From Spirochaetota bacterium (GTDB lineage: Bacteria > Spirochaetota > UBA4802 > UBA5550), in the NCBI GenBank assembly GCA_050298055.1, contig JBNKTL010000044.1, positions 1-44,162 on the forward strand: 44,162 bases of DNA, read 5' to 3'. Under the pieces are notes generated by a model. It saw only the letters and a list, made by a program, of their open reading frames with translations. It did not search any database and was not told the origin of the DNA. Shown piece after piece: positions 4,951 through 35,241 of the stretch. Position numbers and translations under genes: made by a program. Each line of letters opens with the position of its first letter. Within the stretch, counting starts at the first letter, position 1.

Positions 4951-5223
4951 CCACAGAGGCACTGATACACAGAGAAAAAATAAAGTATTTTGAACCGCTA
5001 AGACGCAAAGAGCGCAAAGTTTATTTATCTTCAGAAATAAAGTCTTGTTCTCTCCAAAAGGCACCGTTGAAAAGATGTGTAAAAAGGGGGATAAGGGGAT
5101 AAAGAGGGGATGGGGATTTGTAAATTGTTTAAACTTTTCTCTCATCCCCTTATCTCCTCTATCTCCATATCTCCTCTATCTCCATATCCCTTTTCTTACA
5201 CTCTTTGCGCCTTTGCGGTTCAA
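4951..5223. repeat. nested inverted repeats built from short-period tandem units
   Basis: 8-mer triplet ccacagag/gcactgat/acacagag at 4951-4974. Outer IR ttgaaccgctaagacgcaaagag (4990-5012) vs ctctttgcgcctttgcggttcaa (5201-5223), 21/23. Inner purine tract 5077-5116 vs pyrimidine tract 5140-5201, which includes (tatctcctctatctcca)x2. Confidence 0.8.
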
Positions 5224-5256: not shown

Positions 5257-5985
5257 TTAACCATCTAACAGGGACGCCGAGTCCCTGTCCAGTACAAATA
5301 TGACTTCCCCTTTACCCTCGACGATACGACGGGCAGGGACCTCCCTGTTATTCTCCCCCAGGGCTTCCTTTATGGGACCGGCTTTCTCCCCTCCCGGCGC
5401 GAGCATGACAACTCTTTTCGATCTGTTTATCAGGGGAAAGGTGAAGGTGATCCTTTTCTGCAGGGGGGCCCCCGGTTCCACCTCCCTCACAAGCTTCTTT
5501 TTCTCATTCAGAGCGTCCGATCCGGGAAAGAGTGATGCCGTGTGCCCGTCCCCGCCTATGCCGAGAAGTACAAGGTCAAAGCAGGCTTCTTCGGCCTCCC
5601 GGGACCGGAAAAACTCCTTAATGGTTTTTTCATACTTTCCCGCGGCGGCTTTCAGAGATCCCTTCACCGGTACCGGGTATATGTTCTCAGAAGGGATTTC
5701 AATCTTGCCCGTCAGTTCTCTCTCTATCAGGGCAAAATTGCTCTCTTCATGATCAGGAGGGACAAACCTTTCATCAACCTGGAAGATATGAGTGTTCTTC
5801 CAGATATCCTTCCCTGCTGTTTTGACGATTTCCCTGAAAAGATGGACAGGTGTCCTTCCCCCGGAGAGGGCCAGGGCAAACCAGCCCTTGCGGGACACAG
5901 AGTCCCTGCATGATTCCAGCCAGTACTCCGCGGTAAACCTCACGGCGTTAGCAGCATTATCAAATGTCTTTACGATGTGTGCCAT
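5257..5985 (-). CDS. pgl: 6-phosphogluconolactonase
   Basis: ALSGGRTP, FQVDERFVPPDHEESN, DLVLLGIGGDGHTASLFP, RITFT motifs. Confidence 0.95.
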   Translation of the reverse strand: MAHIVKTFDNAANAVRFTAEYWLESCRDSVSRKGWFALALSGGRTPVHLFREIVKTAGKDIWKNTHIFQVDERFVPPDHEESNFALIERELTGKIEIPSENIYPVPVKGSLKAAAGKYEKTIKEFFRSREAEEACFDLVLLGIGGDGHTASLFPGSDALNEKKKLVREVEPGAPLQKRITFTFPLINRSKRVVMLAPGGEKAGPIKEALGENNREVPARRIVEGKGEVIFVLDRDSASLLDG

Positions 5986-5994
5986 GAAAAACCA

Positions 5995-6103
5995 CCTGTT
6001 TGTTAAAATATCAACAAGATGTCCCCGCCGCCTTCGGCGGCGGGGACATCTCAGTTATCTTTTTTATGAATATGATTATTCATATATTAAGCTTGAGTAA
6101 TTA
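5995..6103 (-). repeat. copy A of the ~135-bp palindromic dispersed element (one end truncated)
   Basis: Perfect 16-bp-arm hairpin at 6017-6051; the reverse complement of the flanks aligns with 33685-33793. Confidence 0.85.
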
Positions 6104-6160
6104 CCGGAATTATTAATTTGACGGCCCTATTGCGCAATAAAAAAATTGAGAAAAGGGATA

Positions 6161-23876: not shown

Positions 23877-23922
23877 TTTTTCCTCCTCGAAGTTACATCA
23901 ACTTCATTTAATAGATTTGTTG

Positions 23923-24058
23923 TTTTTCCTTAACTTATAGAGAAAATTAGTTATTTTAATGAAAAAAAGATAATTGGTTTGTCCCCGCCGCCGTAGGCGG
24001 CGGGGACAAACCAATATTTCATTGTTAACTCTGTTTTAACTATACAGCTAAGTATTGC
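23923..24058 (+). repeat. copy B of the ~135-bp palindromic element
   Basis: Perfect 20-bp-arm hairpin at 23973-24015 with loop GTA; shares aaaaaagataa upstream and an agctaagtatt end with copy C. Confidence 0.8.
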
Positions 24059-32826: not shown

Positions 32827-32880
32827 TCTCTATTAGCGGGAATATTTCTTGTTTTACAACAGTATATACAAAATGAAGTC

Positions 32881-33019
32881 TCTGTCATCATGAGGAACGA
32901 AGTGACGTAATGATCTGTTCTCTTGAAAATTCAGTTATCGAAATATAAATAACCAAGCCTTGCTTACAACATTAACAGCAATTCGATACAGATAGCCACG
33001 CTATGCTCGCTATGACAGA
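32881..33019. repeat. 139-bp REP/RPE-like inverted-repeat element (GTCAT...ATGAC ends)
   Basis: Perfect terminal IR tctgtcat/atgacaga; arms tctgtcatcatgaggaacgaagtgacgtaatgatctg and cagatagccacgctatgctcgctatgacaga around an AT-rich centre. Confidence 0.65.
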
Positions 33020-33569: not shown

Positions 33570-33684
33570 GGAAAATTACTTCTCCTTAAAATGAACTTAA
33601 CAAAGTCAATATATTAAATTTAAAACAATTATGCAAACTCTTTTTGTATTCTTATACACTGGTGAGGAGCAACAAAAATATTTT

Positions 33685-33822
33685 TTACTACTCAACTATG
33701 TATAAGAATAATCATATTTATTAAAAAAGATAACTGATATGTCCCCGCCGCCTGCGGCGGCGGGGACATATTGTTGATATTTTAGTAAACAGGCTGATTA
33801 TACTCATATAGCTGAGTAGTAA
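33685..33822 (+). mobile_element. copy C, apparently complete 138-bp MITE/REPIN-like element
   Basis: TIRs ttactactcaactat (33685-33699) / atagctgagtagtaa (33808-33822), 14/15; central perfect 16-bp-arm hairpin at 33737-33771. Mobility is inferred, not shown. Confidence 0.7.
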
Positions 33823-34023
33823 CAATTTTTTTTACAAAAATTAAAAAGAAATTGAAATAATTCTCATTAATTATAAAAAGAATAGAACAGGGTGAAGATA
33901 AACCGGCAATGAAGCAGTAAAGAGTCGTGAAATAGATTATCCGCTATTTCTCTTTAGACAATTCCTCGATTTTGTTTAAACTCTTAATATTAATCCCTTC
34001 AAAGGCCAGATGTAAAAAAGACT

Positions 34024-35004: not shown

Positions 35005-35086
35005 AAACAAAAACAAAACAGAAAGAGATAACCGTTTCCTGAAAAGAAAAATAAAAATTCATCCCCAAATTTTACTTGAAAAAATA

Positions 35087-35186
35087 TTACTCCTCAGCTA
35101 TGTCAAAATAAACATGAATAAATAATCTGTTCTCCTCGACGGGGACAGATTGCTGGTATTTTATTAATATATTTTAGCCGTACAGC
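35087..35186 (+). repeat. copy D (degenerate) of the palindromic element
   Basis: TIR-like ttactcctcagctatg, shortened hairpin aatctgttctcctcgacggggacagatt (35124-35151), then ttgctggtattttattaa matching ttgttgatattttagtaa of copy C. Confidence 0.6.
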
Positions 35187-35241
35187 AAAATCTTTACGAA
35201 ATAATACATGTTCCGATATATAAAAAGCTGAAGGTGAATCC

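Follow-up and report, generated by a model that had tools for sequence, protein, structure and literature searches.

The window, a 44,162-nucleotide stretch of DNA from a Spirochaetota bacterium, contains four copies of a 140-bp repeat that is almost certainly an IS66-type MITE. We consider it probable that this IS66-ended element has been moved in trans, and that the pairing of the hairpin it carries as a passenger has been kept by template switching in replication.

The 140-bp repeat family and its copies in the window

A profile built from 72 exact-core copies detected 375 copies of the repeat at E ≤ 1e-3 in the 4.7-Mb genome (387 non-overlapping copies at E ≤ 0.01), and none in the locally shuffled genome. 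This whole-genome count bears out the dispersed element that had been proposed in a first-pass annotation of the window. The family occupies about 1% of the genome. Its units have a modal length of 139-142 bp, lack coding capacity and share one layout: a 16-bp terminal inverted repeat (TIR) starting GTAACTACTCAGC, an AT-rich arm of about 40 bp, a 35-bp hairpin, a second arm and the inverted end, with the whole 140-bp unit forming an imperfect palindrome. Both ends are present in 184 of the 375 copies.

Copy C is a full-length unit at 33684-33823 on the + strand (profile score 133.8 bits, E 1e-40), located between a divergent hicB-like gene and a 326-aa ORF and overlapped by no ORF of at least 35 aa. 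Its left TIR (33684-33699, +) differs from the IS end described below at 3 of 16 bases, and its right TIR (33808-33823, -) was likewise placed by sequence against the IS ends. The unit is framed by a decayed 8-bp target duplication, whose left (33676-33683, +) and right (33824-33831, +) halves are identical at 6/8 positions. The central hairpin (33737-33771) has a 16-bp stem, made up of a 10-bp GC core and a covarying AT-rich base, and a 3-nt loop that reads TGC on the + strand and GCA on the - strand. The earlier size of ~135 bp is corrected here to 140 bp; the 15-bp TIRs attributed to copy C are present in imperfect form, with 14/15 bases matching. Back to back with copy C lies a probable left-end remnant of a fifth copy (33647-33673, -), recognized by eye as an inverted repeat and given no score by the profile.

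The other three copies, placed by sequence and profile, are less complete. Copy B (about 23922-24058, +) has degenerate ends and a 20-bp perfect stem, and its right arm reads as a copy of its left arm. Copy A (5985-6104, -) has lost its right end and abuts, at 5985, the start codon of a 6-phosphogluconolactonase-family gene. Copy D (about 35086-35192, +) is degenerate with a partly deleted hairpin, and its profile match is limited to 35137-35192 (E 2e-6 within the window). Folding z-scores are -12 and -13 for the two strands of copy C and only -1.9 for copy D. All four copies were thus found in the sequence where the first-pass annotation had placed them, and copies A-C do share the core TGTCCCCGCCGCC-N3-GGCGGCGGGGACA with flanks that differ yet pair (agat/atct, atat/atat, attggttt/aaaccaat). 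Its statement that the window contains no transposase also holds for the 35 window ORFs scanned against Pfam, the partner lying elsewhere in the genome, and Rfam returned no match in the window at gathering score.

Several other features surround these copies. A HicA toxin gene (PF07927; 33137-33569, -) adjoins copy C, and the 81-aa ORF upstream of it resembles a HicB antitoxin, with no family match. An inverted pair of other hairpins (GTCAT...ATGAC type) is found at 32879-33017, upstream of an Lhr helicase gene, and has related copies elsewhere in the sequencing contigs. Short AAG-type repeats at 4990-5017 and 5196-5223 form a 28-bp inverted pair with a spacing of 178 bp and belong to a different repeat family.

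The IS66 partner and the traces of transposition

The MITE has the same 16-bp ends as a single-gene IS66 (ISBst12-type) element elsewhere in this genome. Of the genome's four IS66 transposase matches, one is a 3' portion located where contig C43 ends, and the MITE's end follows it directly. The partner lies at contig ends (C43, C73, C74, C75 and C91): Its left end occurs there in three identical copies and its right end in two, beginning with the 16 bases that also begin the MITE, and one pair of a left and a right end has a common flank, the 8-mer AAAAATTA. On C74 the partner ORF begins 79 bp in from the left end, and a 181-bp internal deletion derivative is present on C6. The middle of the element is unassembled in this genome and its transposase is seen as a fragment, which matches PF03050. 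A full-length relative, 76% identical over 160 aa, is a single ORF of 482 aa that passes the NF033517 IS66 cut-off (299 vs 180 bits). Relatives of the partner in other genomes are 1510-1545 bp long with one ORF, the same ends and no tnpA/tnpB accessory genes, and the flanks of four distinct full-length ones (L023, L024, L027 and L042) contain no matching 8-mer. Two complete three-gene IS66 elements (C87, C91) were ruled out as the partner: They have other ends. A left end of the single-gene element is 95 bp away from the three-gene IS66 at G000 C91:1-2591.

Target duplications were analyzed in 122 of the 216 near-full copies, those with both ends placed. A perfect 8-bp duplication frames 22 of them, against 0.24 expected by permutation, and 56 match at ≥7/8 positions; lengths of 2-14 bp other than 8 gave no peak in the same 122 copies. 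The duplicated targets are AT-rich. Elements of 32-42 bp that are hardly more than two IS66 ends also occur (G000 C13:68578-68609, C37:34102-34136 and C2:120789-120830), and a perfect 8-bp duplication flanks the smallest, of 32 bp. The copies are divergent, with a mean pairwise identity of 72% and a nearest-neighbor identity of 84% at the median and 96% at most. By crude gene calls, 366 of the 375 copies lie outside called ORFs and 9 inside. On the same calls, intergenic copies are enriched between divergent genes (43% vs 31% expected by length), depleted between convergent genes (3% vs 12%) and unbiased in orientation (82 vs 104). None of the 122 joined flanks matched an empty site within the genome, the genus having no second genome to compare, and three sequencing runs of a near-identical strain from one study, whose contigs break at the copies, gave no joint that skips a copy.

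The 375 copies, the 8-bp duplications and the ends identical to those of an IS66 element therefore describe an old MITE with an identified partner, in agreement with the MITE reading of the first-pass annotation. Judging by these shared ends, the single-gene IS66 (ISBst12-type) transposase likely moves the MITE in trans. It would bind the two 16-bp ends and insert the 140-bp unit into AT-rich intergenic DNA; the MITE would have spread long ago and its copies would have decayed since.

IS66-type MITEs are of an ordinary kind. As described in PMC12898284, ISDge4 is an active ISBst12-group element with one ORF and an 8-bp repeat, and its ends (GTGACTACTCAGCA/GTAACTGCTCAGCA) are near-identical to the MITE end. 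The MITE and its partner resemble this group further in the 8-bp target duplication and in the partner IS, which measures about 1.5 kb and has one ORF and GTAA(C) ends. Unlike it, the MITE has no gene, shares with the IS only ~16 bp per end and is filled by an unrelated imperfect palindrome. It is similar to ERIC, Correia/NEMIS, RUP and QMITE2, as portrayed in PMC10969869, PMC3184786 and PMC3733652, in being short, AT-rich, intergenic, TIR-bounded and present in high copy, with a long stem-loop and duplications that fade with age. It differs in having IS66-type ends and a central hairpin common to MITEs of two other transposase families, and the available text of these three accounts names no IS66 MITE. 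Likewise, the 140-bp family and the presence of one hairpin in several shells are undescribed in the literature searched, which spans few subscription journals; sequences of the family may be listed in the MITE census of PMC11602168.

Paired variation in the stem

The first-pass annotation had suggested that pairing in the hairpin is actively maintained. Across about 325 aligned copies per column, with no filter on the core, covariation is indeed beyond chance: At stem positions 9-16, counted from the loop, 173 double Watson-Crick changes occur where 35 are expected. The inner positions 2-8 have 14 double changes vs 7 expected together with 293 one-sided breaks, positions 17-20 show 4 vs 4, and the TIR pairs 47 vs 36. 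That part of the claim stands, while template switching, a mutational process, accounts for the pattern better than selection acting on an RNA.

Loops and stems were counted in the 202 of 375 copies whose core is near-intact. Relative to their asymmetric flanks, the loops occur in both orientations (TTC 64 and GAA 38, CAA 14 and TTG 6, GAC 11 and GTC 8). Perfect stems of at least 17 bp are found in 17 copies, compared with 2.6 after arm shuffling, and several, copy B among them, have one arm replaced over a long run of bases by the complement of the other, in a region where the consensus does not pair. Template switching is described as yielding homogenised arms and inverted spacers, and the mutagenesis of quasi-palindromes also resembles the present case in its multi-base conversions, stem extension and loop inversion (PMC5941160, PMC8794818, PMC8604942). 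It differs in that the changes here extend across hundreds of transposon copies, are limited to the stem base and are known from sequence. Part of the covariation is inherited within subfamilies: Stem position 14 clusters on a weak tree of 139 rows (19 steps vs 29 shuffled), and position 10 does likewise. Folding is slightly better on one strand in 82 of 122 copies, which are not independent, and strand polarity of the hairpin was rejected as a weak signal.

Conservation is 0.91/0.90 in the stem and 0.86/0.87 in the TIRs, and the value derived from the target duplications is about 0.89 (by arithmetic on 108 copies with at least 4/8 matches). The core is lost or damaged in 44 of the 122 both-end copies. 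As the stem decays at about the rate of the ends and duplications, host selection on inserted copies is not visible. At the replication fork, the 10-bp GC core would fold and the polymerase would then copy one arm from the other; such fold-back copying could rewrite the stem base, flip the loop and sometimes delete the hairpin.

One hairpin core in three MITE shells

Of 401 genomes sampled from the phylum, 19 contain the exact 23-bp core, and these 19 all belong to the window's order. In the present genome, all 166 cores (≤1 mismatch) lie inside a profile match to the IS66-type MITE. A sample of 106 distinct core sites from 21 relatives includes 56 with one or both ends of a second shell (CAGTAWTTATTCCT), 12 with IS66 ends, 11 with a third end (TAGACTTGTTG), one hybrid and 26 without a recognized end. 

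The second shell is an IS4-family MITE of about 121 bp with a 9-bp duplication, perfect in 50 of 107 distinct copies vs 0.5 expected, many of these copies coming from related metagenomes. Among the metagenome matches listed, 91 of 125 have the second shell and none has IS66 ends. Ends matching those of the second shell are found on a 1,232-bp element (L499, L464) that has a 9-bp duplication and an IS4-family transposase. This partner was found in an order-wide search and is absent from the DDE_Tnp_1 matches of five genomes, the ISNCY matches of 41, 20 regions and the small contigs of this genome. Among viral contigs, 100 matches to the IS4-type end included no IS, and the one core match had an unrelated context. 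In G011, other hairpin-bearing elements are nested in the IS4-type MITE at TA-rich sites (L242-L246).

The third shell is an IS5-like MITE of 97-101 bp, and a 3-bp AWT duplication was read in 5 of its 7 copies. The terminal sequences agree with those of a 960-bp element (L534) that has an HTH_Tnp_4 domain and no NCBIfam match, and that we take to be of the IS5/ISL2 type. Across genomes, the IS5-like shell carries several different hairpin cargos, including the CGTC type (L549, L550, L525 and L533). In three G094 loci (L484, L492 and L494), the left arm of this shell contains TAACTACTCA, a ten-base piece of the IS66 end, as a relic or by chance.

Two shells can occur in one genome: G012 has the IS66- and IS4-type shells, G094 the IS66-type and IS5-like shells and G095 the IS4-type and IS5-like shells. 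Homology between the arms of the IS66- and IS4-type shells was rejected (p 0.53-0.94). The bases next to the core differ among the three shells yet pair in each, and self-complementarity of the arms within shells has mean z values of 1.6, 1.6 and 2.9. All three shells also carry other hairpins or none, and the core is therefore not required by any of the three transposases. About 16 CGTC/SRM-type hairpin pairs occur in G000, 7 of them with both IS66 ends; IS66 ends surround such double hairpins, without the GC core, at C29:23416-23573, C58:26855-27047, C21:3486-3674 and C66:5034-5306. A second mobile family formed by CGTC-type hairpins between IS66 ends is not supported, as the flanks of the 7 both-end cases match at 1-5/8 positions, near chance.

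The hairpin probably passed between the IS66, IS4 and IS5-like shells by nested insertion and recombination, or by fold-back copying at the core. In two G012 loci (L247 and L259), the left half is IS4-type and the right half IS66-type, with the junction at the core. L247 has kept a 9-bp duplication around it, which points to nested insertion and recombination at the core; L259 has no duplication, and hybrids were rejected as mobile units on this comparison by eye. Three tandem runs of core-bearing units in G001 (L046, L047 and L049) have periods of 74, 96 and 115 bp.

Other explanations for the paired, widely shared hairpin are selection for the element, an independent mobile unit and a function for the host. 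Template switching alone leaves the identity of the 23-bp core across three families unexplained, which hints at selection on spreading lineages. The hairpin of the IS66 MITE might accordingly be selected at the level of the element, aiding the transposition or survival of any shell, as a GNA-looped fold that is stable in single-stranded DNA or as a protein-binding site; three shells would then have converged on carrying the hairpin. The identical core in one order, in shells without arm homology (IS66- vs IS4-type), would agree with this. So would the GNA loop found on one strand in 90 of 107 IS4-type copies, the unusual stability reported for d(GNA) loops in DNA (PMC3201870, PMC13037366), and five hairpin-less copies of 102-104 bp, by eye the products of separate microhomology deletions, that did not amplify. 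Against it, only 119 of 202 loops are GNA in this genome, loop positions 1 and 3 change more often than position 2, and the same shells carry other hairpins or none; we regard element-level selection as unlikely, but as the strongest of these competitors. 

We doubt still more that the hairpin is an independent REP-like unit which, with its own enzyme (RAYT/HUH or an Ssn-type nuclease), inserts into palindromic MITE centers. One core in three shells, the tandem runs in G001 and the 26 of 106 sites in relatives without a recognized shell leave room for such a unit, but every core of this genome is inside a MITE and no shell family was found that lacks exactly the core. REPs resemble the core as short GC-rich palindromes with hundreds of intergenic copies (PMC3733652, PMC11893778), and are described as regularly embedded in longer palindromes (PMC3733652). 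Unlike REP/REPINs, CGTC-type REPs and Ssn motifs as these sources present them, the core moves inside DDE-type shells with target duplications, and in the loci examined it has neither a GTAG or CGTC foot at the stem, where its flanks vary freely, nor an adjoining RAYT or Ssn gene. The REPIN reading of the first-pass annotation does not hold: The core is beside none of 37 Y1/RAYT-type loci, 7 in this genome and 30 in five relatives (of 35 matches there), and near one of 15 GIY-YIG loci, over 1 kb from the gene. REPINs are not known to be associated with DDE-type target duplications. Least probable of all, in our estimate, is that the hairpin is retained by the host because it functions as an RNA structure, for example as a transcription terminator acting both ways or an mRNA stabilizer. 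MITE stem-loops can alter mRNA stability (PMC10969869), the copies are overwhelmingly outside called ORFs, and in a loose scan copy C is terminator-like on both strands (3 sites vs 1.6 +/- 1.4 in shuffles). Against this stand the depletion between convergent genes, the enrichment between divergent ones and the lack of orientation bias, all on crude gene calls, as well as the one-sided breaks in the inner stem, the frequent loss of the core, the freely flipping loop and the absence of an Rfam match.

Together with template switching, we tentatively entertain, while rating it improbable, that the hairpin acts as a seed from which new MITE families arise. An IS end landing 25-60 bp from the hairpin would be duplicated on its other side by fold-back copying, which would yield a new palindromic MITE for that transposase. 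If true, this would explain why one core lies at the exact center of IS66, IS4 and IS5-like shells, why their arms are self-complementary yet unrelated between shells (IS66- and IS4-type compared), and the template-switch footprints. Enzyme-less REP-like palindromes could then spread by hitch-hiking across transposase families.

The strong "compensatory" covariation in this family is most likely a replication artefact, which calls for caution in calling structured RNAs from repeats. One hairpin rides the MITE shells of three transposase families, and the usual explanation of a MITE is an IS copy that has undergone internal deletion. How REPs that lack a dedicated transposase spread was left open by Di Nocera et al. 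(PMC3733652). The exchange of hairpin cargo between shells offers a testable answer both for the origin of MITEs and for the spread of transposase-less REPs.
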